Notes: a model not told the origin generated them from the sequence alone. Shown: positions 5,845 through 62,958, counted from the first letter of the stretch. The stretch: 64,000 nucleotides of DNA from an uncultured Colwellia sp. (GCA_913049915.1 CAJWZC010000009.1:386-64385), one strand, 5' to 3'. Translations and numbers: made by a program.

Positions 5845-5906
5845 TGGTACAGGAACTCAACAATTGGTCTGTCCAATAATAATTGGTAATTACTATGTGT
5901 GTCAAG
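5845..5906 (-). promoter_or_regulatory. Promoter/operator module copy A (operator 5862-5877; -35 TTGACA at 5905-5900; -10 TATTAT)
   Basis: AATTGGTCTGTCCAAT ends 24 nt from GTCAA, the same spacing as five other copies; lies upstream of the GH105-kduI-kduD run. Confidence 0.8.
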
Positions 5907-6082
5907 GTAACTTTAATTCTTGAGCCGATACATATAATAAAAACAATGATTACAAATAAAATAAAGGCAGAATATAAGCAACTTAACAGCGTTCCTTTTA
6001 AAATAAGAAAAGCACGAATGATATTAATTGGTCAAATAGGCGCGTATGAATATCTCATTTACCGAGTCAATAAGAAAATTAT

Positions 6083-6579
6083 ATGAACATGCCAACTAAG
6101 CTCTTTTTTGCTTTTGTTACCCTAGTCGTGCTCTCCGAGCCAACCTTTGCCTAAGTTTATGATGAATCTGATATTCTGGGCATTGAATCCATTGTCATAA
6201 AACTTCAGAATAAAAAGACTGGCGAGCAGTCGCTGACAAACGTATTGATAAAATACGCAAGTCTGACCTCTCTATTCAGATCATCGACGCTGAAGGAGAA
6301 GCGCTAGAAGGGGCTAAGGTGGATGTTCGGTTAAGACGCTATTCCTTCACCTTTAGCGGTGTTATCTCAGCCAAGAAGTTTGGTAAGTTAAAGCCTTTGC
6401 TCAAAAATTTTTTCAATCAGATCGGTTTTGGCATAAGTCTCAAGTACAAGCAAAAAGAACGCATGGCCGATAAGGTTGATAAAGTAATGACTTGGGCTGA
6501 GGCTAATAACATGCCAGTGCGTGGCCATGCTCTGGTTTATCCGGGTTGGAAGTTCATGCATAAAATGCGCATGCCCTAA
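6083..6579 (+). pseudogene. Decayed, 3'-truncated GH10-like glycosidase
   Basis: Signal peptide MNMPTKLFFAFVTLVVLSEPTFA followed by TAA, a frame switch, then DWRAVADKRIDKIRKSDL...VRGHALVYPGW (GH10 RGH motif). Ends long before the catalytic glutamates. Confidence 0.65.
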
Positions 6580-6615
6580 AATACAAAACGTCTGAACTGC
6601 GCGCATTTATAGACA

Positions 6616-6651
6616 ATCAGATCAAAGTTAAATATAACCTTGTTCTGATCC
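6616..6651. repeat. Degenerate inverted doublet of the GGGTCAGAACAAAGTTA REP-like unit
   Basis: ATCAGATCAAAGTTAAATATAACCTTGTTCTGATCC. Confidence 0.6.
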
Positions 6652-6790
6652 TCGCCATAAGACATTTAGTTAAACTGTAGGATCATATGTAGAGTATCCA
6701 TTTCCAGTACGAAATTTGTTGATTGCTGATGTAAAAGGCCTTGGCATTATTACCTCTTGAGTTTATCTTCTGTTTAATTTAATTAAAATA

Positions 6791-8326
6791 TTATAAATCC
6801 TGAACTGTTACTGTGCCGCTAGATGTCCATTTAATCAGTAATTGCTGCCACTCTGTTACGTCCCAGTTGTAATCTTCCCCTAAATCGATTGCCTCACGAA
6901 TAAGGGTAACAGATTTCGACAGTTGTCTGGGTTGCATATTATTATAGGCTATGGCTTTCAAATAATGAAATTGTGGGTTTTCATCCTGGCTTTCGGCTAT
7001 TTGTTCTAAATACTTCATTGCTCCATTGACGTCATGCAAAGATTGATCTTTTGCCAGAAGCTTTAATTCTGCCACTTTGCGGATCGCTGCGAGATGTTTT
7101 TTCTCTGCTGCTGAATTTAACCAGAATAGGGCTTTTTCTTCATCATGAATAACCCAGGGACTATCAAGCAAAATCCTGCCTAAGCGATATTCCGCCTGAG
7201 AAAGCCCCTCTTTACTCGCTCTAGCGATCCAGTATATGGCTTGCTGTAGGTCTTTTTGCTCACGATAGAGTTTTAAACCATACTCAAACTGGGCTTCGCT
7301 ATGACCTTCCTGAGCGGCATTTTTTAGTAGACTATCTACTTGACCTACTTTCGGTTTTAGCCAGGTGAAATTCATTAAAATCTGTGCATATTGATACTTG
7401 TCTTGTGGGGTGTTGCTTGTTTTTAGCTTGTTGACCAAGCGGCGGACTTTTCTATATAAGACCCCATAATCACGACGTATTCTGAAAATGTCATAGTTGG
7501 CTATGCCTAGGAAAGTACGGTTAACAAAATGAATATTTTCGCCCTTAAATTTAGGCTGTGGCAAAGTAGATAAAGACAGCTCGTATAACCCCTTGTTAAT
7601 TACGCCCATGGTTTGTCTTGGCACAAAATCTCTGCGTGAGCCGTCAGGAGCAATATCATAATCGACAACTAAAAAATAAGGTTTATTAAATAACGCATCA
7701 TTGGTGGTTATATAAACTGATGAGTACGATTGTAAACTGTCGCCACCAAATTCATCTTCACCTCCAAAATTATCATCCATGCTGTTTTCTAAAGACGAGA
7801 ATTGGCTGTCAAAATCATCAATATCGTCATCAAAGCTGCTGTGTTTTCCAGAAAGTTCACTTTCGTCGCCAAAATGCACCTCAGTGGTCAAGTTATCTTT
7901 TTTTAATACTGGAAAATATTTTGCATTAATACTGGCTTGACCGTATTGTTTTTGAAATTTATCAATATAGGATTGCACCAACACTTTTTGATCTTGGGGT
8001 ATGCCAGCCATCAAAAATTCTACAATTTCAACTGAATTATCATAATGATACTCTGCCGCCAAGGAGAACCAAACAAGGGCTGTTACCTTATTGATCTCAG
8101 TGCCTAGACCTTGGTGATGAATAGCCCCCAGTTGATAATAAGCTCTAGGGTTGCCGATTTCTGCTGCCGCTTGATATTCGGTTCGAGCTTTAAGGTAATT
8201 TTTTTGTAGAAAGCTTTGGTCGGCTACAAATATAGTATTGGCAAAGGCAACTACTTGAGTACTGTGACTCAGTAAAAACAGGCTAATAACTAATCCAAAC
8301 CGATTCACAATAGATTGACGCTTCAT
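6791..8326 (-). CDS. Secreted Sel1-like repeat protein
   Basis: Signal peptide; repeated AYYQLG/AQFEYG/AEYRLG-..A..W..AA Sel1 units; acidic linker. Confidence 0.8.
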   Translation of the reverse strand: MKRQSIVNRFGLVISLFLLSHSTQVVAFANTIFVADQSFLQKNYLKARTEYQAAAEIGNPRAYYQLGAIHHQGLGTEINKVTALVWFSLAAEYHYDNSVEIVEFLMAGIPQDQKVLVQSYIDKFQKQYGQASINAKYFPVLKKDNLTTEVHFGDESELSGKHSSFDDDIDDFDSQFSSLENSMDDNFGGEDEFGGDSLQSYSSVYITTNDALFNKPYFLVVDYDIAPDGSRRDFVPRQTMGVINKGLYELSLSTLPQPKFKGENIHFVNRTFLGIANYDIFRIRRDYGVLYRKVRRLVNKLKTSNTPQDKYQYAQILMNFTWLKPKVGQVDSLLKNAAQEGHSEAQFEYGLKLYREQKDLQQAIYWIARASKEGLSQAEYRLGRILLDSPWVIHDEEKALFWLNSAAEKKHLAAIRKVAELKLLAKDQSLHDVNGAMKYLEQIAESQDENPQFHYLKAIAYNNMQPRQLSKSVTLIREAIDLGEDYNWDVTEWQQLLIKWTSSGTVTVQDL

Positions 8327-8377
8327 ATTTTAACTCTCACTGAGTGGGAAATAACTGTATCAAGTTAGTAACATAAA

Positions 8378-8427
8378 ATAATTAGGGTCATAACAAAGTT
8401 ATTTAACTTTGTTATGACCCTAATTAT
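8378..8427. repeat. Perfect 24-bp inverted doublet of the REP-like unit
   Basis: ATAATTAGGGTCATAACAAAGTTA-TT-TAACTTTGTTATGACCCTAATTAT. Confidence 0.85.
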
Positions 8428-8443
8428 ATCTGCATTGGTAGCA

Positions 8444-9937
8444 TTACTTCTTCCTAGTAATGCCGTATTTACTGAGCTTTTTCTCAAAATGTTCATTAAC
8501 GGCATTGCCGTAAATATATTCCGATATTGGCGCTGGGTTGATGGGCAAGTGCTTTATAAAGCGTTTTTTGATATCAGCATATTCTTTATTTAAGGCCAAA
8601 TTTGTCCACTCTTCAGGGTCTTTATCATGGTCATAAAGTTCCTCGCTACCATCGGAATATCGAATATAGCGATAGCGCTCGCCACGAATACTATGATTGC
8701 CTTCACCATATGTGGTGATAGCTGGACGGCCTGAGGTGTTGGCATCACCTGTCAATAGTGGTTTCAAACTTGTGCCTTCATTACGATCGTATGCGGGCAG
8801 ACCAGCGATATCCAGTAAGGTTGGGTATAAATCCAATAAGCTCACCGGTGTTGCTAACTTTTGACCTTTGAGTGTTTCAGGGCTTTTGATAATAAACGGA
8901 ACGTGTGTTGCTTCCTCCCAGACACTATGTTTGGCAAAACGTCCCTTTTCGCCAAGATGATAGCCATGATCAGACCACAACACGACAATGGTATTATCAC
9001 GGTAAGGACTTTGTTCAAGTTCATCTAAAATCTCTCCAACGTATTGGTCAACAAAAGAAATACTGGCGAGATAGCCCTGAACTGCTTTTGCCCACTCCCC
9101 GTTTTTAATAGCCCAGTCAGTCGTTGGCATCATTGGCATTTCATGAATAGCTTTACTGATTTGGGGAACATCATTCATATCTGTTGCCAAATAAGGCGGC
9201 GTTATGATGTCTTCAAGTGGATTGAGATCAAAGTATTTTTGTGGGGCATACCAGGGCGCATGTGGACGAATAAAACCAACGGTCAAAAGGAACGGTCTGT
9301 GATGATCTTCTTTTATCTTGTCTATCGCCCATATTGCAGACTTATAATCAATCATGTCCTCATCTTTTTCAGGAAACACTCCCCAATCAGTATTCGTGCC
9401 GTTGCTATCCCAAGCAAAAGCTTTATCCGGCTTAGGGCCAAATCCTTTAATTCGTCCGCCATACTGCTCAAAAGCACCTTCTGCTGAACTGTTATGGAAA
9501 ATTTTGCCAATACCCATGGTTTTATAACCATGGTCGCCAAAATATTCCGGTAAGAAGGCAATCCCCTTAGTGGCAGGGCTAGCTTTTTTAATGTCTTTGT
9601 CTTTAATATGCCAATAAATACCGGTGGTGGTTGGACGAAGACCGGTCATAATACTGGCGCGTGATGGCCCACAAAGTGCTGCAGTAGAATGTGCATTAGT
9701 AAAAAGCATGCCTTGGGAAGCAAGACGATCAATATTGGGGGTTTTAGCATTGGGGTGCCCTTCCATCGCGCCTATCCAATCATTGAGATCATCCACGATG
9801 ATCATCACAACATTTGGCTTTTTATTAACATCAGCTTGTTTGCTCTTATCAGACGCATTGCAAACGGCACATAAAACTGTGCATACCAACACAGTTATCA
9901 ATTTAAGAACACGGATTAGAGCATGGAATTGACGCAT
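8444..9937 (-). CDS. S1 sulfatase (iduronate-2-sulfatase/choline-sulfatase-like)
   Basis: IIVDDLND, CGPSRAS, GKIFH, GFIRPHAPW, SDHGYHLGEK; signal peptide. Confidence 0.9.
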   Translation of the reverse strand: MRQFHALIRVLKLITVLVCTVLCAVCNASDKSKQADVNKKPNVVMIIVDDLNDWIGAMEGHPNAKTPNIDRLASQGMLFTNAHSTAALCGPSRASIMTGLRPTTTGIYWHIKDKDIKKASPATKGIAFLPEYFGDHGYKTMGIGKIFHNSSAEGAFEQYGGRIKGFGPKPDKAFAWDSNGTNTDWGVFPEKDEDMIDYKSAIWAIDKIKEDHHRPFLLTVGFIRPHAPWYAPQKYFDLNPLEDIITPPYLATDMNDVPQISKAIHEMPMMPTTDWAIKNGEWAKAVQGYLASISFVDQYVGEILDELEQSPYRDNTIVVLWSDHGYHLGEKGRFAKHSVWEEATHVPFIIKSPETLKGQKLATPVSLLDLYPTLLDIAGLPAYDRNEGTSLKPLLTGDANTSGRPAITTYGEGNHSIRGERYRYIRYSDGSEELYDHDKDPEEWTNLALNKEYADIKKRFIKHLPINPAPISEYIYGNAVNEHFEKKLSKYGITRKK

Positions 9938-10147
9938 TATATCTCAAAATAGTAATAATAGTGGAAGAACATCAGTATACTCAAACAATTCGACCTTACC
10001 AATACTTTGTTTGAATATCATAACATAAACGGACAAATAACTGATATAAAAGGGTTAATATTTAATCCGATCTACTAATTAAATCTAAAGTAAATTAATC
10101 TTGCAGATTTGGTCAGGCCTATTTATAATACCAATACTTAAATATTC

Positions 10148-12178
10148 ATGATACGCTTGGAGAACAACCTGATGCGACTTAATAGACATTTCACCCTCCG
10201 CTCAATTTGGGGATTGGGCATACTGATTAGTATTTTGTCGATAGGGGTACATGCGAGTAATGAACGTCCGAACATTTTACTCATAGTGAGTGATGATCAC
10301 AGCCCAATGTTAGGTACCTACGGCGATGATTACGCAACAACCCCAAACCTAGACGCAATGGCAACCCGAGGCCTTCAATATAATCACGCATGGTCCAATG
10401 CTCCGGTATGTTCCCCTGCTCGCGCAACACTGATTACAGGCATGTATCCGACATCTTTAGGTTTGCAAAACATGCGAACCCTTTTTGCAACACCAGACTA
10501 TGTAAAATGGTTACCCGAATATCTACGCGAAGCTGGCTATTATACGGCGAATATCGGTAAACATGACTACAACACCTTAGAGCCTAAAGGCGCTTGGTCT
10601 GAGCGGGTCAAGGTTAGAACCTTGAAAGACTGGGATAGGACAAATTACTTTAAAGAAACTGATGGAAAAAAACCCTTTTTTGCTATTGTTAACTTACTGC
10701 AAACTCATGAAAGCAAAGTGATGTTTGATATGGAAGGCAAGCCAAGATCCATTGATGACATCAAGCACAACATAAACAAAGCTCCCTTAGCAAAATACTT
10801 TCCCAAAGACGCCATGATCCAGCGCATCATTGCCCAATATTATGACAATGTCAGTGAAGTAGATGAAGCGGTAGGCGTTATCCTCAAAAGCCTAGAACAT
10901 GATGGCCTCAAAGAAAATACTATCGTTATTTTCATGGCCGACCACGGTACAGGAATCGTGAGATCGAAACGCTGGCCCTATAATAGTGGTCTGCAGATCC
11001 CCTTAATCGCCCAGTTTCCAGAGAAATTAAAACATCTAGCTACCGCAGTACCTGGCAGTAAAATGGATGAAGTGGTCAGTTTTGTCGATATTGCGCCAAC
11101 TGTTTTGAATCTAGCCGGCCTTGAAGTTCCAAAACACTTTCAAGGCAGAGCATTTTTAGGTGAAAAACCTGGTGATGCACCCAAATATGCGTTTGGTTTT
11201 CGCGATCGTATGGACGAACGACTAGACCTTGTACGCACGGCAATGGACGGCCGTTATCACTACATGCGTAACTTTTTGCCTAAATTACCTTATGCTCAGC
11301 ACATTGATAGCCAATATGCCTTTCAACCACTAATGCCAATTTGGCACAAAGCTTACAACGATAATTCCCTGAATACTGTTCAATCTAAATGGTTCGAGGA
11401 TAAACCTGCTGAAGAGCTCTATGATCTGCATAGCGACACTCAGGAAATCAACAACCTAGCCGCTGATCCTAACTATAAAAAGGTGCTTGAACGTATGCGA
11501 GCGGCTACTATACAGTGGATGACCGATACTCTCGACACGGGTGTACTAACAGAAGTTGGAATGACCGCGCTTGCCGGCGATAAAGTGTTGTACACCTTGC
11601 TACGCGAAGACAATGCTCCAGATTATGGTGCATTCCTCAAAGCTGCCGATCAAGCGTCTAGATCAACGGATATCAATGACCATCTGACTAACCTTCAAGA
11701 CCCCAGTGCCATCATCCGATTTTGGGGAGTAACGGGTTTGCAAACAATGGGAGGTAAAGGAAACAAGGCAGTTAAATTACTTGAAAATGCGCTGAGTGAT
11801 AAAAGCGCCGCTGTTCGCGTTGTTGCCGCAGAAGCTTTATGTAGTATCAGCTCATGCACCCGTGCACTAGAAGAGTTGATGCACATCACCGAGACTCAAG
11901 AAGGTGCTGCCCGTTTGACTGCTATCAATGCAATTGACCGATTAAATATGAAAGCAAAACCTGTTGAAAACAGACTAAAAGCGCTGGCGAAAAAACTATC
12001 TCCCATTGCGTCCCGCTCTTCTGTAGGCTCTGATGCAAAAAAAGGAGACGAAGTCGCTATTCAAGCGAATATGCACCTTGAATATGCCAAACGTGTACTA
12101 AAACGTACATTACAAGACCTTGCTGGTGAAAAACCATGGAATCGTAATAAATCTCCCTTAGAAGGTGACCAACGCTAA
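10148..12178 (+). CDS. S1 sulfatase with C-terminal HEAT-like repeats
   Basis: IVSDDH, CSPARAT, ADHG; C-terminal IIRFWGVTGL / VRVVAAEAL / ARLTAINAID helical repeats. Confidence 0.88.
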   Translation: MIRLENNLMRLNRHFTLRSIWGLGILISILSIGVHASNERPNILLIVSDDHSPMLGTYGDDYATTPNLDAMATRGLQYNHAWSNAPVCSPARATLITGMYPTSLGLQNMRTLFATPDYVKWLPEYLREAGYYTANIGKHDYNTLEPKGAWSERVKVRTLKDWDRTNYFKETDGKKPFFAIVNLLQTHESKVMFDMEGKPRSIDDIKHNINKAPLAKYFPKDAMIQRIIAQYYDNVSEVDEAVGVILKSLEHDGLKENTIVIFMADHGTGIVRSKRWPYNSGLQIPLIAQFPEKLKHLATAVPGSKMDEVVSFVDIAPTVLNLAGLEVPKHFQGRAFLGEKPGDAPKYAFGFRDRMDERLDLVRTAMDGRYHYMRNFLPKLPYAQHIDSQYAFQPLMPIWHKAYNDNSLNTVQSKWFEDKPAEELYDLHSDTQEINNLAADPNYKKVLERMRAATIQWMTDTLDTGVLTEVGMTALAGDKVLYTLLREDNAPDYGAFLKAADQASRSTDINDHLTNLQDPSAIIRFWGVTGLQTMGGKGNKAVKLLENALSDKSAAVRVVAAEALCSISSCTRALEELMHITETQEGAARLTAINAIDRLNMKAKPVENRLKALAKKLSPIASRSSVGSDAKKGDEVAIQANMHLEYAKRVLKRTLQDLAGEKPWNRNKSPLEGDQR

Positions 12179-12272
12179 AGTGTTTGCTGCTTTAATTAGC
12201 AGCCAAGCTATTCAACACTTAATACTTGAATTCAAGAAAAAATAATCTTTATTTAAATAATATAGGAAAATC

Positions 12273-13778
12273 ATGATGAATAAAATGTCCAAACTGCTGA
12301 TATTGCTTATCCCTAGCCTCTCTTGTATTACTGCGAGTGCTGCGGGTGTTGAAAGTACTATGACGACTGATCAACCTAACATTATTATTATTCTTTCTGA
12401 CGATGTCGGTGTCGGCGATATCAAAACGTTTTATAAACCATCGAAAGTAACCACGCCAAACATTGATAAACTTGCCCGTCAGGGCATGAGCTTTACTCAG
12501 GCGTATGCGCCAGCATCGGTTTGTTCACCTTCACGCTATGGGTTACTCACGGGTAAGTATCCTAGCCGAGGACCGGTGAGATATGCGCCGGCGAGATTCG
12601 ATTCGCCGCTAACTATCGACACCGACATGGTGACCTTACCTAAGTTTTTGCAGCAACAAGGCTATAAAACTGCACACCTAGGTAAATGGCATTTAGGTTA
12701 CGGTGAAACAGGCATTACAAATTGGGCTGGTGATATAAAACCTAGTGCGCCTGAAATTGGCTTTGATTATTCATTAGGCTTACCAACAAACCATAGTGAT
12801 AATTTCAGATCATACGTAGAAAATCATAAACTACTTTGGCTCAAAGACAGTGTTACTAACCTGCCTAACAAGCCGACAAAAAACGACCTAAAAAAAACCC
12901 GTTTTGATGATGAGGTCGACTCAACATTGACCAGCAAAGCAATTCAGTTTATGAAAACCAACAAAGACCAGCCTTTCTTTCTCTATCTGGCGTTGGTTGC
13001 GGTACATACGCATGTAACTCCTCATAAAAAATTTCGCGGCACCAGTGAACTTGGCCAGTTTGGCGACTACATTAATGAATTGGATCACCATGTCGGAGAA
13101 ATCATGGCAACGCTTGAGGAGCTTAACCTGGCTGATAATACCATCTTAGTCTTTGCAAGTGATAATGGCGGGCAAGAAAGAGATCATCATACCGCAGGCA
13201 AAAATCTAAATTTGAAAGATACATCACAGCAAGTAGCAGAGAAATCCAAGACCGCTAAAACGGATGCAAAAGAAAAGTTTGGCCATCGCACCAATGGTGA
13301 TTTAAGTGGTTACAAAAGTAGTAATTTCGAAGGTGGCTTTAGAGTACCCTTTATTGTTCGTTGGCCTGGAAAAGTAGCAAAAAATTCTGAGTCGAAACAA
13401 GTATTCGTGTTAACTGATATCTTGGCAACAACTGCAGGATTACTTGAAAAAGACTTACCTAAATCAGCCGGTGGCGATTCATTTGATTTTAGCTCGGTTT
13501 TGCTTGGCGAGAACGTAACAAAGCCAATTCGCACCACCAGTATTTTTCAAACACCCAATGGCTTATTTGCGTTTAGACAAGTCGACTGGAAACTTCGATA
13601 TGTACCCGACTCAAAAACCAAAGGTAAAGCAGTCAACTTGTTAAAAGTACCGGTTGAGCTTTATAACTTGGCTGAAGATCCCTATGAAAAAAATGATGTC
13701 GCAAGCTTACATCCTAAGCGAGTGACTGACATGAGAGAGTTACTTGTTGCACAATTAGAAAGAGGCCACTCGCACTAA
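12273..13778 (+). CDS. S1 arylsulfatase-like sulfatase
   Basis: ILSDDVGVGD, CSPSRYGLLTG, GKWHLG, SDNGG, EGGFRVPFIVRWPG. Confidence 0.9.
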   Translation: MMNKMSKLLILLIPSLSCITASAAGVESTMTTDQPNIIIILSDDVGVGDIKTFYKPSKVTTPNIDKLARQGMSFTQAYAPASVCSPSRYGLLTGKYPSRGPVRYAPARFDSPLTIDTDMVTLPKFLQQQGYKTAHLGKWHLGYGETGITNWAGDIKPSAPEIGFDYSLGLPTNHSDNFRSYVENHKLLWLKDSVTNLPNKPTKNDLKKTRFDDEVDSTLTSKAIQFMKTNKDQPFFLYLALVAVHTHVTPHKKFRGTSELGQFGDYINELDHHVGEIMATLEELNLADNTILVFASDNGGQERDHHTAGKNLNLKDTSQQVAEKSKTAKTDAKEKFGHRTNGDLSGYKSSNFEGGFRVPFIVRWPGKVAKNSESKQVFVLTDILATTAGLLEKDLPKSAGGDSFDFSSVLLGENVTKPIRTTSIFQTPNGLFAFRQVDWKLRYVPDSKTKGKAVNLLKVPVELYNLAEDPYEKNDVASLHPKRVTDMRELLVAQLERGHSH

Positions 13779-13810
13779 GAAAAGTAAAGACTTCTTGTGA
13801 AGCTTTACTC

Positions 13811-14076: not shown

Positions 14077-14097
14077 TCTACTAACAACTAACTAAGA

Positions 14098-15144: not shown

Positions 15145-15160
15145 TTAATTTATCTAGTTA

Positions 15161-18637: not shown

Positions 18638-19357
18638 TTATAAATTAAAATTAATGGTCGTCGTAGCGTTATCAAGGTGGTTCTTCATCGCTGTACGCGC
18701 CCTTTCAGGGTTTCTTTGCGCAATAGCCAAAACAATCTTTTTATGTTCATCAATGCAAAGTCCCTGCTTCTTAATTTCTTCTTGAATACATTTAGTAAAT
18801 ATAGACTCTGAACGTAATTTCCATAACCACTGTATCGACTCTTTCATCGCTGCATTATCACAATATTCAGCAATGGCTACATGCAATTTAGTATCTGCTT
18901 GTTCAAAAGATTCTGCATTTATATCATCAGCTTCCATTTCCCTAATAATATTTTTTAGTTCTTGAATTTGTTCATCACTAATTCTTGCTGCCGTTAATGC
19001 ACATATTTCTGGTTCAAGGATATAGCGCATTTCTAAAACTTCAAAGGGGCCAATTCCACTACCAATGAGGGCGGTATAGCTTTTGCTAGTATTATCAGTA
19101 ATATAGGCACCTGATCCAGTACGTATATCGATAAGACCTGATAATTCAAGCGCTATCATGGCTTCACGTATTGTTTGACGGCTAACCTGTAATTTATCTG
19201 CCAGAGCCCTTTCTGCAGGAAAGCGATCGCCAACTTTAAAATAACCATTATCAATTAACGAGCGTAATTGTTCCGCAACTTTGAGATATAATTTATCTGT
19301 TTTTTTTTCTTCAACTTTTATCGCTTCAAACTGCATTATCGCACTCACTGTCCACAC
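18638..19357 (-). CDS. GntR family, FadR-subfamily transcriptional regulator
   Basis: wHTH FPAERALADKLQVSRQTIREA...RTGSG plus FCD effector domain (EMRYILEP, ADTKLHVAIA, EHKKIV). Confidence 0.92.
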   Translation of the reverse strand: MWTVSAIMQFEAIKVEEKKTDKLYLKVAEQLRSLIDNGYFKVGDRFPAERALADKLQVSRQTIREAMIALELSGLIDIRTGSGAYITDNTSKSYTALIGSGIGPFEVLEMRYILEPEICALTAARISDEQIQELKNIIREMEADDINAESFEQADTKLHVAIAEYCDNAAMKESIQWLWKLRSESIFTKCIQEEIKKQGLCIDEHKKIVLAIAQRNPERARTAMKNHLDNATTTINFNL

Positions 19358-27422: not shown

Positions 27423-27494
27423 TTTGTTTTCCGTCTTTATTTTCTTTTATTAATGGATTCTGGTGGAATTAAGCCGATACAACAAAAAAATACG

Positions 27495-27569
27495 TGGTAT
27501 AGCCACCCTGTCAACCAATCCACGAATTGGTCTGTCCAATACTACTGGCAACATATCATACAAGTCAAG
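27495..27569 (-). promoter_or_regulatory. Promoter/operator module copy B (operator 27525-27540; TTGACT-N18-TAGTAT)
   Basis: AATTGGTCTGTCCAAT 24 nt from GTCAA (27564); secondary TGGTATAGCCA at 27495. Confidence 0.8.
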
Positions 27570-31310: not shown

Positions 31311-31448
31311 AATAAAATCCTTATGGAAAGTTTGTCAGTGAGCTCAGAAAATTTAGGGCTGACTGTTGAAAGTAAATATTGTATATACCCGTGTTGCCCA
31401 AAATACAGGACTAAAGCAAACGAGACCCATACGACAAAAAACTTTTTA

Positions 31449-31568
31449 TAGTATAACCACCCGACCAACTAACCCTATAATTGGTCTATCCAAGACGACT
31501 AATAACACATCATGAAAATCAATCATTGGTCTGTCCAAGACTACTAAAAACATAATATACAAGTCAAT
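31449..31568 (-). promoter_or_regulatory. Promoter/operator module copy C with duplicated operator (31479-31494 and 31524-31539)
   Basis: AATTGGTCTATCCAAG and CATTGGTCTGTCCAAG; the second lies 24 nt from GTCAA (31563). Confidence 0.78.
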
Positions 31569-54380: not shown

Positions 54381-55982
54381 TTAGAAGGGTTCTTCTAAAT
54401 GGACAATGCCTGACTCAACCGTTTTCCACCAAGCATCATATTGCGCAATTAGCTCGGCGAGTTTTTCAGGATGGCTTGATGCCAGATTATTGGTCTCGGT
54501 TCGATCTTTACTCAGGTCATATAACTCCCACTGACCGGTAGCAAAGCTCCAAAGTTGATCGTTATTTTGTTTTTTCTTAGATTCATGCACCACCAATTTC
54601 CAGTTGCCGTCAACCACTGATTTACCACTGGCCCACTGATTAAAAACAGGAATTTCGCGTTGCACCGTGCCATTTTTAAAGGCTGACAATAGGCTCATGC
54701 CATCAAGCGTACCCACTTTTTCGCCCTGAAATACTTTCGGATAACTTGCGCCTGTGATATCGATAAAGGTCGCCAGAATATCAACAAGATGTGATGATGT
54801 TTGATTAACCGGCCCACCTGATTTGACTACACCGGGCCAATTGACGATGAATGGGGTAGCAACACCACCTTCAAAACTATCAGTTTTATAGGCTTTAAAT
54901 GGCACATTCGAAACATTAGCCCAATGGCCACCAATGGAAGACCAACGGTCAATAGCGCCAATCTCGCCGTCGCCTATATCGAGCGCTTGAGCCGAAGCAC
55001 CATTGTCGGATAAAAAGATGATTAGGGTATTATCAACTTCACCAGTATCTTTGAGATGAGCCAATACACGACCAACATTCTGGTCGAGATTATCAATCAT
55101 CGCACCATAGACTTGCATCACACGAATTTGATCTTTTCTTTCTTTATCACCCAGATCATTCCATGATTGAAACATTGCCTTTGAACGTTTATGAGTGTCC
55201 TTGCTGATGATACCTAGCTCAAGTTGGCGCTCATAGCGCGCTTTGGCGATGGCTTCATAACCAACATCATAAACGCCTTCGTATTTGGCAATGTCTTTTG
55301 GCCATGCCTGAATAGGATCATGTGGTGCTGTGTAAGACAAATACATAAAAAATGGTTGTTCATCATCTGACTTTTCGTGACGTTCAAGTAATTCTATGGT
55401 CCAATCGGTAAAAGTATCGGTGCTATAATAGGTTTTCTTTGGCGGTGTGAAAGGTTGTACACATTTGGTATCAAAGCAAAAATGCCGAATATTTTGTCTT
55501 TTGTGGGCAGGAAAAGCTTCACCATCACGCTGATAACCGGGGTTAAAATGATTTGCCGCTCCGTCGCGCATCCCCCAATAATGGTCAAAACCCATGTCGT
55601 ATGGGTTATCGGATGAATGGTGCTTGCCGACCATTAGCGTTTTATAACCAACACTTTGCAGTAGCTCACCAAAAGTGACACTGTTTTGATAACTACCACG
55701 ACTGGCACCCATGCCGACCTTTTGTGGAAATTGTCCTGTCATTAAGGAAGCGCGAGTAGTATTACATTTTGAGGTATTGCGAAACTGATTAAAGCGCATG
55801 CCTTCTTTTGCGAGATTATCAAGGTTAGGGGTTTTCACCTCGCTACCATAAGTACCGATATCGGAAAAACCCATATCGTCAACCATGATGAGCAAGATAT
55901 TAGGATTTTTGGCTTGATCGGCAACAGCAGATAATGATGCCATAATCAACCCGATTGATAAAATTAGTGTTTTCAAGGGCAT
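54381..55982 (-). CDS. S1 arylsulfatase (AtsA-like)
   Basis: MVDDMGFSD, variant motif CNTTRASL, GKHH, YTAPHDP, SDNGA, EGG..TPFIVNWP. Confidence 0.88.
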   Translation of the reverse strand: MPLKTLILSIGLIMASLSAVADQAKNPNILLIMVDDMGFSDIGTYGSEVKTPNLDNLAKEGMRFNQFRNTSKCNTTRASLMTGQFPQKVGMGASRGSYQNSVTFGELLQSVGYKTLMVGKHHSSDNPYDMGFDHYWGMRDGAANHFNPGYQRDGEAFPAHKRQNIRHFCFDTKCVQPFTPPKKTYYSTDTFTDWTIELLERHEKSDDEQPFFMYLSYTAPHDPIQAWPKDIAKYEGVYDVGYEAIAKARYERQLELGIISKDTHKRSKAMFQSWNDLGDKERKDQIRVMQVYGAMIDNLDQNVGRVLAHLKDTGEVDNTLIIFLSDNGASAQALDIGDGEIGAIDRWSSIGGHWANVSNVPFKAYKTDSFEGGVATPFIVNWPGVVKSGGPVNQTSSHLVDILATFIDITGASYPKVFQGEKVGTLDGMSLLSAFKNGTVQREIPVFNQWASGKSVVDGNWKLVVHESKKKQNNDQLWSFATGQWELYDLSKDRTETNNLASSHPEKLAELIAQYDAWWKTVESGIVHLEEPF

Positions 55983-56142
55983 TATTTTTTCCTCATTAAT
56001 ACCATATCGCAGTCACGATCAAATGAATAAGCAGACTGAGTGTTTGATCTGCCTTTAATGCAAAATTTTTATAGTTTAGTTGATAACTTACTTCTGGCGA
56101 ATTAGGCCTAAACGACATTAAACTATACCATTTTACTTTTCA

Positions 56143-56205
56143 TGGTATAGCCACCTCATTAATTGGCCTGTCCAATATTACTCGTAACATATCATATATG
56201 TCAAG
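56143..56205 (-). promoter_or_regulatory. Promoter/operator module copy D (operator 56161-56176; TTGACA-N18-TAATAT)
   Basis: AATTGGCCTGTCCAAT 24 nt from GTCAA (56200); TGGTATAGCCA at 56143. Confidence 0.8.
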
Positions 56206-56419
56206 ATAACTTTAGTTCCTTAACAGCAGTAATTGCTGATTGAACAAAATAAATCATAATAATATCTTTATTTAGATATATATTAACGACTTAGCTTAAA
56301 AATTTAAAAGTTATCAATTAAAAGCCACCAAGGAAATAAATTGGTCAAATAGGTGTTAATAAAAGGTCTAAATATAAGCAACGATTTTTCGTTAATCCGC
56401 TTTTGGTTACGCAAATAAA

Positions 56420-56564: not shown

Positions 56565-59273
56565 TTAGAACTCAATATCAATATAAGCTTTATGGCTGCC
56601 ACCATTATACTCCTTGGTAAGCATATAGAAGAAAATGCCTGTTTCATCGGCCTCCATAATCGCTAAGCTGAGGGTACCATCACCATCGACTTCACCTTGA
56701 ACCAAAGCGGTTATATCAAGGGTTCGCCAGCCATAATCGGCGTCAGCCACAGTAAATGAGCCTGCTGAACTAGCCAAATCTGGCAGTTCATCCCAAGTAA
56801 GTCCGTTTTCTGTCCAGTTATCGTGGTCAATCGGCTTTATTTTCTGTTTAACACTATCACCATTTTTGGTATAGCCATAGACGTTAAGGGTCGCTGAGGT
56901 AATGGTTGCACTATTGGCCGCACTGACATCAAACTTCATGACAATAATTCTATCGGAGTCTGCATCGCCGCTGCCCTCTTTACTTTTGATGGTATCATCT
57001 GTGCCATAATCGGTAGTGGCAGAGCCTTCACCTCTTTGAACATAAGTGTCAGCAGTTACATTTGCAGTGTAACTTGGTACCTCACTTGAACTTGCATAGC
57101 ACAGTGCATCCCAGCCATAAAAGTAACCCGCCGCAAAACAGGCACTTTCATCACCATGATAATCACTTTCATTATCATCAACTGGGGCTGCTAGTATTAT
57201 TTCAAGGTAAGGGTTTTCGTCGCTAAAGTCGGACGTTTTTATCTGTTGGGCTACATCTAGACCATTAGTTTGGCTGAACGCTAGACTTAAGATGCCGTCG
57301 CCGTCGATTTGGGTTTGCACATAAGCGGTAATATCTACTGTCTGCTTTTGATAATCATCGCTGTTATTGGTGGTCATTGAGCCGATACTATCACCAATTT
57401 CGAGATTATCATTCCAGTTTACTTCATGCTGATCCCAGCCATCAGCGCTTACTGCACCGATATCGGTTGTGATAGTGGTGTTGTTACTGTTTTTGGTGAA
57501 TACATGGAGAATAGCGCTGCTAATGTTGGCATCAATGGCGCTAACATCAAACCTCATATAACCAACCTTGTCCTTAGTACTACTATTTTTAACCTTTATC
57601 TTAGTAACTGATCCGAAATATTTATCCGGCTTACCGCTGTCAACATAGGTTTCGGCTACTGGAAACCTGATAATAGGTAGCGTAGGTTTAGGGAGTAAAT
57701 CAGTGGGGCCAACGTCCGCTACCGTTAACGGCTTATTAATACTAGCGGTTGTCGTGTACTCAGCAGCACCCACATCATGAATTGAATCGCGTGATAAACC
57801 ATGTATGTCAATATTGGCTAAGCTGTAGTTAGTGTTAACCGCATTAACTACGGCACTAGAAACAGTAGGGACAAACACACCATCAACATCAGCGGATAAA
57901 CCTGGATTAATTTCATCGATTTGTGCAGCAGTAATGGTTCTACCGAGTACGGCTAATTCATTGCTTATGGAAGTGGAAGAACCATAAGCAATATTACCAA
58001 TAAAAGTAATGCTAGGCTCAATATCCAAGTACTTTGGGTCATCATCAAACAATGCAGTGCTGCCGGCATAATAAATAGCGTTGTTAGCGATAATTGAATT
58101 TATAGGCGCATTAATATGTTGAAACGGGTCACTACCTACCTGCCCAATAACCAGCGAAGGTTTTGAGTTAACAATAGTATTGTTGTAAATTTCTAAATCT
58201 TCGGCACTTCTATATTCGCTGCCATTGCCGCCAGTGCCAGCATATATAGTAATACCCGCTTTTTTAGTGTTTTTAATGTGATTGTTATAAACTTTATGTC
58301 CATTACCAATAATACGAATACCGCCAGTGCCATTAATGCCACCACCATCAATAAAATTACCATAGACTTGGTTATCATCACCATTACGTAAGGTAATAGA
58401 ACCTTGATTATCAAGGAATGTATTGTACCTAAAGATGTTGCTGTCAGATTTACTAGAAATAATCTCAGCTTCTCCGTCTATTTTATAAAATAGATTGTAT
58501 TCCGCAATGGTATTGGAATCAGTTCCTGCCTCGGCACCACTGCCTATCTTAAGGCCTTCTTGTCCGTTTGCACGATCTGGGTAATTGACAGAAATACGCG
58601 TATCGAAGTAATTATGATGAAAATGATGATTATCCTCAAAATTAGGGTAGTTAGCATCAGTCGAGTCGCGACGATTAACTATCACCATAACGCCACTCAT
58701 CTGCATATTGGTAAAATGATTATGGTCTATTTCATTATGAGAGCCACGCACATTAACCCAGTGGTACCTAACCTCTGAATCTTGGCTGTTGAAACCATCA
58801 ATAGTGGTATTTGTTAAGCGACTGTGATTCGCAAAAGTGCTGGTATCTGTAGAGTCATCATAAAAACGAATGATCCCGCGACCATCAGCTCTTTCACCAT
58901 TTTGAAAATGCAAACCATCGACGATTAAATAATCACCCGCAATTTTTAAGCCTGAATTTCCTTCCAGAGAAACACCACCTTTGCTTTGGGCTTGCAACAG
59001 TATCGGCGAACTTGCCGTGCCATCGACATTAAACAATATTTCTAAGTTAGTATAGGTACCATCTTTAATGACGACGGTATCTCCTGGGACAGATGCTGCA
59101 ATCGCATCTTCAATTTCTGTTGGTGACCCTGCGGTTCTGACCGTAGCAAAAACACTTCCTGCCAGGCTGATGCTTAATAGTACCACCACTGTTTTACATA
59201 AACGGCTTCTCAAACGCATTGTTAAATCAACCAAAGTTAACTTCTTTATATTTTGTAATAACTTTAAATGCAT
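56565..59273 (-). CDS. Secreted PL6 lyase with two C-terminal CBM96/DNRLRE-like modules
   Basis: EGLKIGSG, EIISSKS...GSITLRNG; two A(E/D)TYV...(Y/V)M(R/K)FDVS...SA.L.V modules. Confidence 0.78.
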   Translation of the reverse strand: MHLKLLQNIKKLTLVDLTMRLRSRLCKTVVVLLSISLAGSVFATVRTAGSPTEIEDAIAASVPGDTVVIKDGTYTNLEILFNVDGTASSPILLQAQSKGGVSLEGNSGLKIAGDYLIVDGLHFQNGERADGRGIIRFYDDSTDTSTFANHSRLTNTTIDGFNSQDSEVRYHWVNVRGSHNEIDHNHFTNMQMSGVMVIVNRRDSTDANYPNFEDNHHFHHNYFDTRISVNYPDRANGQEGLKIGSGAEAGTDSNTIAEYNLFYKIDGEAEIISSKSDSNIFRYNTFLDNQGSITLRNGDDNQVYGNFIDGGGINGTGGIRIIGNGHKVYNNHIKNTKKAGITIYAGTGGNGSEYRSAEDLEIYNNTIVNSKPSLVIGQVGSDPFQHINAPINSIIANNAIYYAGSTALFDDDPKYLDIEPSITFIGNIAYGSSTSISNELAVLGRTITAAQIDEINPGLSADVDGVFVPTVSSAVVNAVNTNYSLANIDIHGLSRDSIHDVGAAEYTTTASINKPLTVADVGPTDLLPKPTLPIIRFPVAETYVDSGKPDKYFGSVTKIKVKNSSTKDKVGYMRFDVSAIDANISSAILHVFTKNSNNTTITTDIGAVSADGWDQHEVNWNDNLEIGDSIGSMTTNNSDDYQKQTVDITAYVQTQIDGDGILSLAFSQTNGLDVAQQIKTSDFSDENPYLEIILAAPVDDNESDYHGDESACFAAGYFYGWDALCYASSSEVPSYTANVTADTYVQRGEGSATTDYGTDDTIKSKEGSGDADSDRIIVMKFDVSAANSATITSATLNVYGYTKNGDSVKQKIKPIDHDNWTENGLTWDELPDLASSAGSFTVADADYGWRTLDITALVQGEVDGDGTLSLAIMEADETGIFFYMLTKEYNGGSHKAYIDIEF

Positions 59274-59364
59274 AATATTAATACTCTTTGAATGTTAAAT
59301 AGATTTGTTTATTATTTTAGTTATCTCTTTGTTCATCCTTTTGTTCATCCTTTTGTTTATCTTT

Positions 59365-59435
59365 GTTACTTTTATTTCTTCCTCTTAAGCATAAATTCTC
59401 TATTTATACTCGTCATCATTCAGGCAAATTAGCGC
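59365..59435 (-). promoter_or_regulatory. Conserved 71-nt 5' leader, copy 1
   Basis: Identical at 69 of 71 positions to 62804-62874. Confidence 0.75.
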
Positions 59436-59455
59436 ATGATGTATAAAATGCAAAT

Positions 59456-59517
59456 TGGTATGCCCCCTTAAAAATTGGACGGACCAATAATACCAAGCAC
59501 ACATTATATATGTCAAT
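59456..59517 (-). promoter_or_regulatory. Promoter/operator module copy E (operator 59473-59488; TTGACA-N18-TATTAT)
   Basis: AATTGGACGGACCAAT 24 nt from GTCAA (59512). Confidence 0.8.
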
Positions 59518-59621
59518 ATGTGTTCAATAAAAACTCAATAAATGTTTAGAATTCAATCTGCAGTGTATTTGAAGAAACACCACGAATCTTAACATGTGAA
59601 TACTATCAATAACTTACAGTA

Positions 59622-60735
59622 ATACCAATGATATTAAGTTTGTGATCTAATGTCTTTTATTTTATATCTCTCAATATAAGTATTATGAGCCCCTTTGATC
59701 GCATTGATTTCAAATCTCTTATCGCTAAGGAAACGAACGGACGCATGCGCGTACGACTAATGGTACTTTCTCATATAAAGGAAGGTATTAATAATTCACA
59801 AACACCAAGAAATCTACATATTAGCCTTCGTATTGTTAATGATTAGGTTAAAAGTTCTTATTCTCAAGGACTTGAAGGATTAAAAGAAAAGCCTCGCTCT
59901 GATCGCCCCTCACGTTTAAATGAAGCTCAACTTGCGCAACTAAGCGAGTACATTCGCAATAATAGCATTAAAGAAAGTGGTGGTAGACTTAACGCACAAG
60001 CGCTTGTTAACTATATTACTCAAGAATTTAAACTCAATTATGGCATTTCTAATGTTTATCGACTGCTTCATCAGCTAGGTTTTTCATGGATAACGAGCCG
60101 CTCCAGACATCGAAAACAGTCGATAGAAATCTAATATAATTTTAAAAAAATTCGAAATGGAAATGATCCTCACGATCCCGTGGAATGTGTGCCTTAAAAA
60201 GGTTGACGTATGGTGCCAAGACGAAGCTCGATTTGAGCAGCAGAATACGACAACACGGCTCTGGGCAGAGAAAGGCACAAGGCCAAGAGCCGTAAAACAG
60301 CAGCAGTTTGAATATTCCTATCTTTTTGGTGCCGTTTGCCCAGCAACAGGAGATACCGAAGCATTAATAGCACCGTGTATGAATATGGATGTAATGAAAA
60401 ACATCTAGCGCTAATTTCGAAAAAAGTGCCTGAAGGGCGTCATGCTCTGATCGTTGCAGATGGTGCAGCTTGGCATCAATGTCACTTAACGGATAGATTT
60501 GAAAACTTATCAATTATTAAGTTGCCGCCTTATTCGCCAGAGTTGAATCCAATAGAGCAAGTTTGGCAATGGCTCCGCCAAAATGAACGCGCAAATAGGT
60601 GCTTCAAGGGATATGACGATATTGTTGATGAATGCAGTAGAGCGTGGAATAGCTTTATATCTGATGCCTCCAGAGTGATAAAATTATGCTCTAGAGACTG
60701 GATACAAGTGGGAAGTTAATTAATGGAATTCGTAT
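59622..60735 (+). mobile_element. IS630-family element, pseudogenised
   Basis: OrfA from 59685 (HTH, KPRSDRP; in-frame TAG at 59844); TTTAAAAAAA junction; OrfB DEARF, DGAAWH, PYSPELNPIE with a frameshift; imperfect ends ATACCAATGATATTAA / TTAATGGAATTCGTAT. Confidence 0.85.
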
Positions 60736-61136
60736 AACTTTTTAAAACTTAAAACCACAAACAATATTAATTGGTCAAATATGAATGTATTAACAGTTCG
60801 AAATATAAGGAATAAATTCAGATGGCCTCAGCTAAATTTGTGTGGTTTTATTCGAAGAATAAACGATATATGACGAGTATGAAGATAAATAATACTCTCG
60901 CTCAGTACATTTTAATTCAAGAAGTCAAGCTAAAAATAAAAAATCACCTACTGTTGATAAACCAGTTCTGAATATGGTTTTTATTTGCTTCTATTCTTGT
61001 TTATTTAAATAGATTTATCGGCATAGAGTCATTATTAGAGAGAAGTGGTCTTATCTTCTTAGTTTTCTTTATTGGTTAACCTAATTATACAGTGTAGGTG
61101 TTTTTCGCTCATCCGCTTTTGGTTACGCACATAAAA

Positions 61137-61170
61137 AAACTCCCCAACATATTGCTATGCTGGGGAGTTT
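61137..61170 (-). terminator. Rho-independent terminator, paralog of 56420-56453
   Basis: AAACTCCCCA...TGGGGAGTTT. Confidence 0.8.
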
Positions 61171-61211
61171 TATTAAATTAAGAGCTCTACTGTCGGCACT
61201 GTCTCTATTGG

Positions 61212-62744
61212 TTAGTTGCTACAAGATTCTGGAGCAGCGGTTGTTTGTTCCAATGGCATGTAAGATTCATTGGGGAATGAGCTAGCGACTTTATATTGAT
61301 TAGGATAATCTGTATAACCGACACATTCTGATGATGTATCACCTTGACAACCACCCCTTATATATAAGTATTCGGTATAACCAAATCCAGGACCACCACC
61401 ATTACCGTATCCCTCTTTATACATTTTTTTCACTGCTTTAAAAGGCGTTATTTCTACACCGCCATTGTATTGATTCAAAAGGATCCAGCGTGCCATTTTT
61501 TTAGTGTCTGTATCACAATCTCCGGTGCCATTTACAAACTCATGGATCAGACCATCAGCTTCATACATAACCGTGGAAAAGGTGTAGCTTATTTTCTCAA
61601 GAAGGTCTTCATCAATAAATTGGCTCGACTCGTTTGAATGATAACCCATTGAATATAGCTTAACTATTGCCTGAACATCTATTCCACCATGACCTGCATC
61701 TTCCCATTTACTTGAATAAACAGGTTCAGCATAATGCCACTTTATTTTTGAACCATTGACTCTTTTTTCGTCATCTCAAGATTCCAACAAGTTACCGATT
61801 AACTCTTCATAGAAGCCCTTGCGATTATTATATTCATCTTCGTCAACTATCGCTAACGCCTTTAACGTATTAGCCATGACAACTGCAGCTGCAAAACCGC
61901 GGTTAAAGGCTATTTCTTCACCCCGTTTTTTATCTGCACTGCTGAACAATTCATCAAGATCTTCAAAACTACCTTTATCTGGGTATCTAAATAACCAACC
62001 TTCATCGTAGTAATCCATCGTGCTTGAATCAATTCTTTTGCCATTTGAGACCCATCTTTTCTTAATATCGTTATCTTGTGGGCCCAATGATTTTGAATCT
62101 AACAGAACAAAATCATCTAAAGTAATGAGTACATTTCCAATCCACCCCTTGGCAACATCCGCGTAGGTTTGGGTGGTTGAGCCACAAATAGTTTGATTGC
62201 CTAACGTTGGATGGGACAGAATATAATTAGCGGCCTCAGCAATAGGCTCAACAATCATCATTGTTTGCACCAAATTTGCCACATAAACCGTTGACCCGTT
62301 AGCTGTCGTTTCTTCGGCCCAAGCATTTAGGGCTTGCCCTTGTATGTAGTCGTTTTGTGCTCCACTAGAGCGAGACGTTTCTGACCGTGAAAAGATAAAG
62401 TCTGCGTGATGCTTAAACTCTTCCATAAAGCCAACGCTTGTTGAATTATTACAAGATTGTCCGGTCATGCGGTGCATATTGAGCAGACCTCTCATCAAGT
62501 AGCTACCACTCCATGCCCACTTGCCCTTCCTATTGTCTGACCACTTTTTGTTAGTTAACTGATATATGCCATTGTCTTCCTTGTATGTGTCATACCAACT
62601 ACTGTAAGTATCGATCTCATCCTGAGTAATTTTTGTTCCTAAACTCAGACCCGTATTCGGCCCGTAAAGACTTGCTGCACAGATACTATAGCTTGTTGCT
62701 AATGTTAATGAAGCGGTTAATAAATACTTTGCTACTTTGTTCAT
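61212..62744 (-). pseudogene. Secreted hypothetical protein (probable alpha/alpha-barrel) interrupted by one in-frame TGA at 61776-61778
   Basis: ORFs 61776..62744 and 61212..61649 share a frame, joined by 42 stop-free codons (LLES*DDEKRV...WEDAGHGGIDV...YSMGY); signal peptide; WAWSGSYLMRGLLNMHRMTG. Confidence 0.78.
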
Positions 62745-62803
62745 CTTGTCACCTCTTGTTATAGTTTTTTATTTTTTTATTTTAGTTATCCTTTTTTTTT
62801 GTT

Positions 62804-62874
62804 GTTACTTTTATTTCTTCCTCTTAAGCATAAAATCTCTATTTATACTCGTCATCATTCAGGCGAATTAGCGC
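62804..62874 (-). promoter_or_regulatory. Conserved 71-nt 5' leader, copy 2
   Basis: 69/71 identical to 59365-59435. Confidence 0.75.
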
Positions 62875-62895
62875 TAAGCTATATAAAACTCTACT

Positions 62896-62958
62896 TGGTA
62901 TATCCGTCTTAATAATTGGCCCGTCCAATTATTAAGATAACATATCATAAATGTCAAT
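62896..62958 (-). promoter_or_regulatory. Promoter/operator module copy F (operator 62914-62929)
   Basis: AATTGGCCCGTCCAAT 24 nt from GTCAA (62953). Confidence 0.78.

Follow-up and report, generated by a model that had tools for sequence, protein, structure and literature searches.

A promoter with a built-in predicted repressor site, reused before at least seven operons in an uncultured Colwellia

How the separate operons of a large polysaccharide locus are brought under common control is the question raised by a stretch of DNA from an uncultured Colwellia sp. (GCA_913049915.1). The window considered here is the whole of that 64,000-nt stretch (CAJWZC010000009.1; C9:386-64385), which belongs to a 3.8-Mb draft genome with 36.7% G+C. 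Judged by the domain and family matches of the proteins it encodes, the window holds a large gene cluster for a sulfated, uronic-acid-containing polysaccharide. Six minus-strand gene strings in it, starting at 5767, 27422, 31310, 55982, 59273 and 62744, are headed by copies of one upstream unit, here called the cassette. Sequence comparison indicates that a promoter with a built-in predicted repressor site is reused before at least seven operons.

The centre of the cassette is an imperfect palindrome, MATTGGHCBRWCCAAK, which the original prediction had placed at six promoters, with an extra copy at 31479. All seven positions were re-found, and they are the only matches in the window (5862, 27525, 31479, 31524, 56161, 59473 and 62914). 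Dinucleotide-preserving shuffles of the window contain this 16-mer 0.02 times on average and never reached seven. A motif search of the remaining genome, proposed together with the prediction, added a single further match, at C11:4768, before a TonB-dependent receptor gene. The fixed spacing between the palindrome and GTCAA, the -35 TTGAC read on the plus strand, was likewise confirmed: at all six window promoters and at the C11 copy, GTCAA starts at the 24th base past the end of the 16-mer, with 23 nt between. The extra copy at 31479 has ATCAA, not GTCAA, at this spacing. A second, TGGTA(T/C)-type box, expected 17-18 or 30 nt further into the transcript, is present in six of the seven copies (before the palindrome on the plus strand). 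Searched with a 131-position sequence-only profile, the genome yields eight copies (E = 1e-26 to 4e-8) and no other convincing match. The palindrome taken by itself (box1) is almost as distinctive, since in a weight-matrix scan of the genome the eight cassettes rank first, at 21-30 bits.

Alignments extend the similarity well past the palindrome. All window cassettes are read on the minus strand, ahead of minus-strand genes, and from 5' to 3' they consist of AAAGTT(A/G)TC, a -35 TTGACA, an 18-nt spacer, a -10 TAtTAT, box1, two further boxes (box2 and box3), a leader block and a ribosome-binding site 100-220 nt past the predicted start. The final two bases of the -10 are the first two of box1, whose consensus is ATTGGACAGgCCAATT (ATTGG-N5-CCAAT); box2 has the consensus GTGGcTATACCA, box3 TTTTGTCGTATAGGnCTAATTCGCCTG and the leader block AATGATTAcGaGTATAAATAgA. 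The predicted +1, derived from the -10 only, coincides with the centre of box1. The -35 stands 29 nt from the TTGG of box1 in 12 of 15 cassettes from three organisms, and the remainder are off by 1-3 nt. In a consensus promoter scan, the cassette promoters came top or near top of their regions; five of the six in the window score 9-11 of 12 hexamer matches, and the 31567 promoter (TTGACT-18-TAGTCT) fell under the threshold. The scan and this register agree with the proposal that the palindrome covers the -10 and the predicted +1 of a TTGAC-N18 promoter. Further upstream, nine of the 15 cassettes carry an element, CCTATTTGACCAATT, 131-149 nt 5' of the -35. A second promoter at the leader block (TATAAATA) was rejected, as inspection by eye gave no consistent -35 at a workable spacing, and no cyclic AMP receptor protein (CRP) site was seen by eye in or beside a cassette promoter. 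The window copies are as follows.

5811..5905, minus strand: cassette A, before GH88-DUF4861 / KduI / KduD (3716-5767 onwards); -35 TTGACA 5905-5900, -10 TATTAT 5881-5876 (11/12 consensus); box1 ATTGGACAGACCAATT 5877-5862, box2 TTCCTGTACCA 5855-5845, box3 GTCGTATAGGTCTAATTCGTCT 5832-5811.
6026..6040, minus strand: upstream element CCTATTTGACCAATT of cassette A, 135 nt 5' of the -35.
27462..27568, minus strand: cassette B, before sulfatase-PL6-PL6-DUF1961-GH88-BNR4-R1; -35 TTGACT 27568-27563, -10 TAGTAT 27544-27539 (9/12 consensus); box1 27540-27525, box2 TGGCTATACCA 27505-27495 (33 bp from the box1 centre), box3 27483-27462.
31414..31567, minus strand: cassette C, a tandem promoter-operator pair before PL6 (29955-31310) and an Ig/LRR lipoprotein gene; distal unit with -35 TTGACT 31567-31562, -10 TAGTCT 31543-31538 and box1 CTTGGACAGACCAATG 31539-31524; proximal unit with -35-like TTGATT 31522-31517, box1 CTTGGATAGACCAATT 31494-31479, box2 TGGTTATACTA 31459-31449 and box3 31435-31414.
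56095..56204, minus strand: cassette D, before sulfatase 54381-55982 and a long same-strand string (GH2-esterase, sulfatase, PL6, others); -35 TTGACA 56204-56199, -10 TAATAT 56180-56175 (10/12 consensus); box1 ATTGGACAGGCCAATT 56176-56161, box2 TGGCTATACCA 56153-56143, box3 56116-56095.
59422..59516, minus strand: cassette E, before PL6-CBM96 (56565-59273); -35 TTGACA 59516-59511, -10 TATTAT 59492-59487 (11/12 consensus); box1 ATTGGTCCGTCCAATT 59488-59473, box2 GGGGCATACCA 59466-59456, variant box3 59443-59422.
62861..62957, minus strand: cassette F, before an unknown protein gene 61776-62744 (and 61212-61649); -35 TTGACA 62957-62952, -10 AATAAT 62933-62928 (11/12 consensus); box1 ATTGGACGGGCCAATT 62929-62914, box2 CGGATATACCA 62906-62896, variant box3 62882-62861.

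The predicted +1 of cassette A lies near 5869, 102 nt ahead of the ATG. Its upstream element bears one box1-like half-site (GACCAATT), and further copies of the element occur in the window at about 31693-31707 and 56339-56353.

The distribution of the cassette in other organisms bears on whether these copies are maintained for a function. No copy turned up in 36 congeneric species or in 24 other families of the order. An Alteromonadaceae metagenome-assembled genome (MAG; JABSOI010000010; L009) holds four complete cassettes in a stretch of about 15 kb, and 40 of its relatives have none. When metagenome contigs were scanned for the pattern, the MAG was re-found and three more cassettes came from a third organism (L015; L016 = L017); a fifth contig match, L019, looked like a chance match and was discarded. 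By BLASTP, the operons behind the cassettes are orthologous in all three organisms, namely GH88-DUF4861/KduI/KduD, the TonB receptor and the 533-aa sulfatase operon, and the proteins encoded at the cassette loci of the MAG and metagenome contigs are 73-98% identical to those of the window. Cassette A has orthologues in L009 (MAG_a) and L017 (MG17a), where they head the same operon, and cassette D has one before the orthologous sulfatase gene in L015. In alignments of the orthologous intergenic regions, the -35, -10, box1, box2, box3 and parts of the leader are kept, while the DNA between them has diverged. Among all cassettes, pairwise identity is 50-78%. The paralogous pair 59473/62914 (cassettes E and F, with a common leader) reaches 78%, and the orthologous pair of window 5862 and a MAG copy 75%. 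Since the blocks have stayed alike and the remaining sequence has not, the copies are taken to be old and held by constraint. To call the module 'cloned', as was done at first, is therefore too strong, and only 59473/62914 resemble a more recent duplication.

The same data speak to a simpler reading, in which promoter or repeat copies have been propagated and kept by descent only and the palindrome is not a functional operator. The same upstream DNA standing before non-homologous genes is what promoter reuse looks like (PMC3575422); insertion sequence (IS) remnants flank the two most similar copies, and elements resembling repetitive extragenic palindromes or miniature inverted-repeat transposable elements (REP/MITE-type) are common in the window. 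However, the blocks are near-invariant in copies that are just 50-78% identical, both placement and block conservation recur orthologously in three organisms, and box1-class sites are found in unrelated promoter contexts (the 10107 spacer, dctP and kdgK/uxaC, described below). Descent without function is accordingly considered very improbable. The likeness to promoter reuse and putative mobile promoters (Nijveen, Matus-Garcia, van Passel 2012; PMC3575422) is nonetheless real: there, too, homologous promoter DNA precedes non-homologous genes and is common to several genomes, and the eight copies here stand before GH88, sulfatase, PL6, PL6-CBM96, unknown protein and TonB receptor genes. In contrast to that case, the present copies are old (50-78% identity), belong to one functional locus and are conserved in blocks centred on the operator. 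No sign of a transposition mechanism was seen, IS remnants being present near cassettes E and F only, and terminal repeats were not systematically searched.

If the palindrome is an operator, its form should indicate the kind of protein that reads it. Box1 is ATTGG(A)-CAG-(G)CCAAT across 15 cassettes, with TTGG/CCAA as its invariant part; box2 is GTGG(C)-TAT-ACCA, its left half having GGC and its right half ACCA. Both have the geometry TKGN-N3-NCMA and match the palindromic form of FadR-subfamily operators, in which 4-5-nt half-sites stand 2-3 nt apart between A/T-rich flanks; the published consensus of that subfamily is TKGT-N2-3-ACMA, with ExuR in the N3 class (PMC4494728). The centres of box1 and box2 are 20-22 bp apart in 11 copies and 33 bp apart in two (27525 and 31479), which corresponds to two, or roughly three, helical turns. 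The original assignment to the FadR-subfamily style thus stands as regards geometry; the GT/AC core usually appears in one half of box1 at most.

This resemblance also raises the possibility that the fatty-acid regulator FadR itself binds box1, which is similar to its operator TGGTC-N-GACCA. Sites listed for marine Gammaproteobacteria, such as AGGTGGTCTGACCTCTA and AACTGGTACGACCAATA, do resemble the plus strand of box1, TTGGTCTGTCCAA (PMC4494728 supplement). The box1 sites are, however, restricted to polysaccharide and hexuronate loci, where they co-occur with two GntR-type regulators introduced below; no fatty-acid genes are among the top box1 matches, and one half-site always deviates from GGT/ACC. 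Binding by FadR is hardly credible on these grounds.

Downstream of box1, the conserved sequence lies within the predicted transcript, so that box2, box3 and the leader block might together form a cis-acting RNA (a hairpin, an attenuator, or a target of a small RNA or protein), leaving box1 as the only operator. Box2 (CTATAC) could pair with box3 (GTATAG), the two being complementary in 78% of cells, and conservation of the leader reaches about +105. In cassette D, moreover, a 14-nt insertion pairs with box2 as a perfect 9-bp hairpin (z = -4.95), and box3 has decayed. Against this, there is no Rfam match at gathering thresholds, the consensus fold amounts to merely -0.64 kcal/mol, and single-sequence z-scores are mostly near -1. 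The box2/box3 stem is without compensatory changes, and its pairing is not above that of shuffles (433 of 500 reach it). Box2, moreover, has exactly the geometry of an operator, two helical turns away from box1. A structured leader was rejected for its lack of an Rfam match, its weak fold and the absence of covariation in this stem. An RNA element is thus an improbable explanation, and because the evidence against it outweighs that in its favour, box2 is treated here as a second operator. Short open reading frames read by eye in some leaders (MMTSINR... in cassettes E and F) suggested a leader peptide, which was dropped because neither the frame nor the start codon is conserved between copies.

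Sites of the box1 class are not confined to the six promoters, and the earlier description of these as a complete regulon has to be widened. The eighth cassette, before the TonB-dependent receptor gene (C11:1752-4631), an operator at 10107-10123 in the window and about five sites at hexuronate genes all add to it, so the regulon exceeds six promoters. The best non-cassette match in the weight-matrix scan, ACTGGACAGGCCAATT (22.2 bits), is in the dctP promoter next to R2, the second of the two regulator genes; next come sites upstream of gntK (19.0 bits), at window 10107-10123 (16.5), between kdgK and uxaC (16.4) and upstream of R2 (15.5). One match, on C27 at 17.0 bits, lies outside this coherent set. 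Operator-class sites before hexuronate genes are also what would be expected of an ExuR/UxuR-type system. The sites concerned are listed here.

10101..10129, plus strand: non-cassette promoter of the operon 10148-17545 (two sulfatases, NHL protein, beta-helix/PKD protein); -35 TTGCAG 10101-10106, 17-nt spacer ATTTGGTCAGGCCTATT 10107-10123, -10 TATAAT 10124-10129.
C11:26695: box1-class site, kdgK/uxaC.
C11:6344 and 6207: box1-class sites, dctP/R2.
C11:23440/23386: box1-class sites, gntK.

At the first of these, the spacer itself is a box1-type operator site, scoring above the genome background, and the orthologous region of the third organism (L016/L017) retains TTGAGA-TTTTGGTCAGACCGTTT-TACACT. 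Nearby on the minus strand, ATTGGTAAGGTCG (9972-10010) overlaps the -35-like TTGGTA of a predicted promoter of sulfatase gene 8444-9937. It is a possible further operator; in L016/L017, where the orthologous intergenic region is much shorter, the site is not kept.

Which protein would read these sites? The two candidates are paralogues.

18638..19357, minus strand: R1, GntR helix-turn-helix (HTH) and FCD domains, FadR subfamily (Pfam GntR 6e-18, FCD 2e-26).
C11:5286-6053: R2, GntR/FCD paralogue, 41% identical to R1.

R1 is the last gene of the same-strand string running from 27422 to 18638 that starts at cassette B, and autoregulation by read-through is therefore plausible. R2 is surrounded by genes for the TonB receptor, a tripartite ATP-independent periplasmic (TRAP) transporter and transketolase, with gntK, uxuB, kdgK, uxaC and uxuA farther away. 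Each is thus a GntR HTH and FCD regulator encoded with the genes it may regulate, and both are also present in L009. Among NCBIfam models, R1 matches ExuR best (133.7 bits, cutoff 396), then NanR (119) and UxuR (109, cutoff 442); R2 matches ExuR at 155.6 bits and UxuR at 130, against the same cutoffs. Because these scores are far under the equivalog cutoffs, neither protein is ExuR or UxuR proper.

The original prediction named R1 as the likely repressor. In its favour, R1 is the GntR/FCD gene within the locus, and its orthologues co-occur with the cassette in both other organisms, at 81% identity in the MAG and 77% on the cassette-bearing contig L016. A more distant orthologue (66%) is found in Thalassotalea sp. 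PLHSN55 (L010). An assignment to R1 alone cannot be upheld, because R2 is near-identical to R1 in its DNA-reading segments (PAER ... VSR(Q/A/P)TIREA ... R(T/I/M)GSG) and because box1 sites occur in genomes that have only R2. Between R2 and uxuB, box1-class sites such as AACTGGTAAGGCCGC are found in two congeners with R2 and without R1 or the cassette. The Thalassotalea strain carries two R1-like genes in tandem, no close R2, and boxes of the form ATTGGTAAGGCC(A/G)C in the region of these genes, though no cassette there. The R2-only congeners and this R1-like-only organism share nearly the same box, (A/C)TGGTAAGGCC(G/A)C. From such comparisons, R1 and R2 appear to read the same operator class. 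In L010 the tandem GntR/FCD genes occupy 9244-10699 and are 57% and 68% identical to R1; their neighbours encode GH88-like, DUF4861, KdgK-like, TonB-receptor, sulfatase and rhamnosidase proteins, several of them preceded by the same ATTGGTAAGGCC(A/G)C boxes.

A pair of paralogues might instead divide the work, R2 binding box1 in the cassettes and at its own targets and R1 binding box2, perhaps also box3, so that each promoter would receive two signals, such as a monomer-level uronate and an oligosaccharide. It fits such a division that the top non-cassette box1 match is the dctP promoter adjoining R2, that R2-only congeners retain box1-class sites between R2 and uxuB, and that box2 at a fixed distance is found only in cassettes, themselves only in genomes with R1. 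On the other hand, R1 and R2 hardly differ in recognition helix and wing, and the sole variable recognition-helix position (Q/A/P) differs even among R1 orthologues. Box1-class sites also occur in the Thalassotalea strain, which has a pair of R1-like genes but no close R2, and in the dctP promoter another box1-like site follows the first about 31 bp downstream (counted by hand). A division of labour is therefore possible but doubtful.

The reading preferred here, and held to be probable, is that the cassette is a portable promoter/operator of a repressor-controlled regulon for a sulfated uronic-acid polysaccharide. A strong sigma-70 promoter (TTGACA, 18-nt spacer, TAtTAT) would be fused to a primary operator O1, equal to box1, which begins inside the -10 and spans the predicted start site; an operator over the -10 and +1 implies repression. 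A second putative operator O2, equal to box2, would have the same geometry two helical turns downstream (about three in two copies). ExuR/UxuR-like GntR/FCD repressor dimers on O1, probably together with O2, would block RNA polymerase, and a uronate-derived catabolite or an unsaturated oligosaccharide may release them. The repressor could be R1, R2 or both, and mixed dimers are conceivable, as reported for E. coli ExuR/UxuR.

Several observations weigh against this account. The canonical GT/AC core of box1 is usually present in one half-site at most, as in TTGGTCTGTCCAA; box2 by itself is unspecific genome-wide, its significance being positional only; a repressor leaves the conservation of box3, leader block and upstream element unexplained; and R1 and R2 are indistinguishable as candidate binders. 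As motifs, box2, box3 and the upstream element showed no enrichment outside the cassettes in a genome-wide scan. A more elaborate version would accommodate some of these parts. In it, the two same-face operators would be read by two paralogous GntR repressors or a heterodimer, each operon would integrate two catabolite signals, the upstream half-site (~160 bp away), box3 and the leader block would add DNA looping or post-transcriptional control, and the unit, besides having been duplicated to positions ahead of unrelated genes, would have travelled with the locus from one genus to another. This elaboration is offered tentatively and is thought unlikely as a whole.

Comparison with known systems places the cassette in a familiar family. 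AusR of Zobellia galactanivorans is the functionally closest studied case, and ExuR, UxuR and NanR are the closest by homology. AusR is a GntR/FadR repressor of alginate catabolism encoded in a polysaccharide utilisation locus; one to three FadR-type operators overlap its core promoters, and unsaturated oligosaccharides relieve repression (PMC7641319). As in that system, the regulator is encoded in the locus, operators lie over the core promoter, a gluconokinase gene has operator sites, the strongest control is expected at paired operators near the promoter, and the regulator is probably autoregulated. Unlike it, the present locus has sigma-70 -35/-10 promoters rather than the Bacteroidota -33/-7 type, targets a sulfated uronan rather than alginate (PL6 and PL5/PL38-like lyases, GH88, sulfatases), and repeats a promoter-operator-leader unit of at least 130 nt at a fixed register, with two paralogous regulators. 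Binding and effectors have been demonstrated for AusR, whereas the cassette operators are predicted from sequence.

The resemblance to ExuR/UxuR of E. coli and other Gammaproteobacteria lies in the best scores of R1 and R2 against ExuR, in the existence of a paralogue pair, in A/T-flanked palindromic operators of TKGN-N3-NCMA geometry (PMC4494728) and in predicted R2 targets that include uxaC, uxuA, uxuB, kdgK and a uronate-type transporter. Cross-regulation and heterodimers have been reported for that pair (PMC9369180). In contrast, the conserved core here is TTGG/CCAA, not GT/AC, and through the reused cassette the regulon reaches about 40 kb of DNA encoding lyases, sulfatases and a TonB receptor. 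NanR, also of the FadR subfamily, binds repeats of TGGTATAW. It is the second-best NCBIfam match of R1, and box2 holds TGGTATAG on the opposite strand, box3 CGTATAG. NanR sites, however, are three closely spaced direct repeats, whereas the GGTATA-like units here are inverted and about 32 bp apart, and the dominant site here, box1, is palindromic. The fixed-register promoter-operator-leader unit, the paralogous regulator pair and the substrate are what is particular to this locus.

The window encodes seven PL6-type lyases (Chondroitinase_B domain), two proteins with an Alginate_lyase domain, two GH88 enzymes, about nine sulfatases, a GH2-esterase and a PL14 fragment, together with KduI and a KduD-like dehydrogenase; R1 is its one GntR/FCD regulator gene. 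Its G+C content is 38-44%, against 36.7% for the genome. The locus is missing from about 40 sampled congeners and is syntenic with the Alteromonadaceae MAG at 73-98% amino-acid identity (transketolase 96.8%), and IS remnants and REP-like elements occur in it. It was likely gained by horizontal acquisition. A zinc-dependent alcohol dehydrogenase at the end of a long operon is broken into two open reading frames (ADH_N 35709-36158, ADH_zinc_N 35130-35684), and the split gene (35130-36158) is probably a frameshifted pseudogene.

Other features surround the cassettes. A DDE_3 transposase fragment (60336-60719) and non-coding IS-like remnants flank cassettes E and F (59600-60720 and 63000-64000), which suggests local duplication or rearrangement. 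Of the REP/MITE-like palindromic element, TAGGGTCAGAACAAAG...CTTTGTTCTGACCCTA, the window contains 10 arms where 0.5 would be expected, and its full hairpins, which follow genes, behave in a terminator-like way. One MAG cassette has a related element inserted in its leader, in place of box3. In the TonB-receptor cassette, AAAACTATA is present four times in tandem in the leader (C11:4640-4690), after box3 and ahead of the start codon. In three cassettes only, that on C11 and two MAG copies, a TTATTC-N3-GAATAA palindrome lies ~80 nt upstream of the upstream element, and this may be another regulator's site. The positions of the two palindromic elements are given below.

6638, 8383-8422, 17543, 18498, 19437, 27693, 46293-46334 and 49422 (window), and ~5880-5930 (L009): REP/MITE-like element.
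C11 ~4990-5010, and ~6480-6500 and ~11340-11360 (L009): TTATTC-N3-GAATAA palindromes.

The regulon described here is real and well defined, and is of a fairly ordinary sugar-acid repressor type. Little has been established about how polysaccharide utilisation loci are regulated in marine Gammaproteobacteria. The locus offers a test system, in which a strong promoter carries a sharply defined operator and a single genome holds about 14 predicted sites and two candidate repressors, with orthologous promoters for comparison. The identity of the effector would point to the sulfated uronan that the locus degrades, and in marine hosts the cassette might be put to use as a part for inducible expression.

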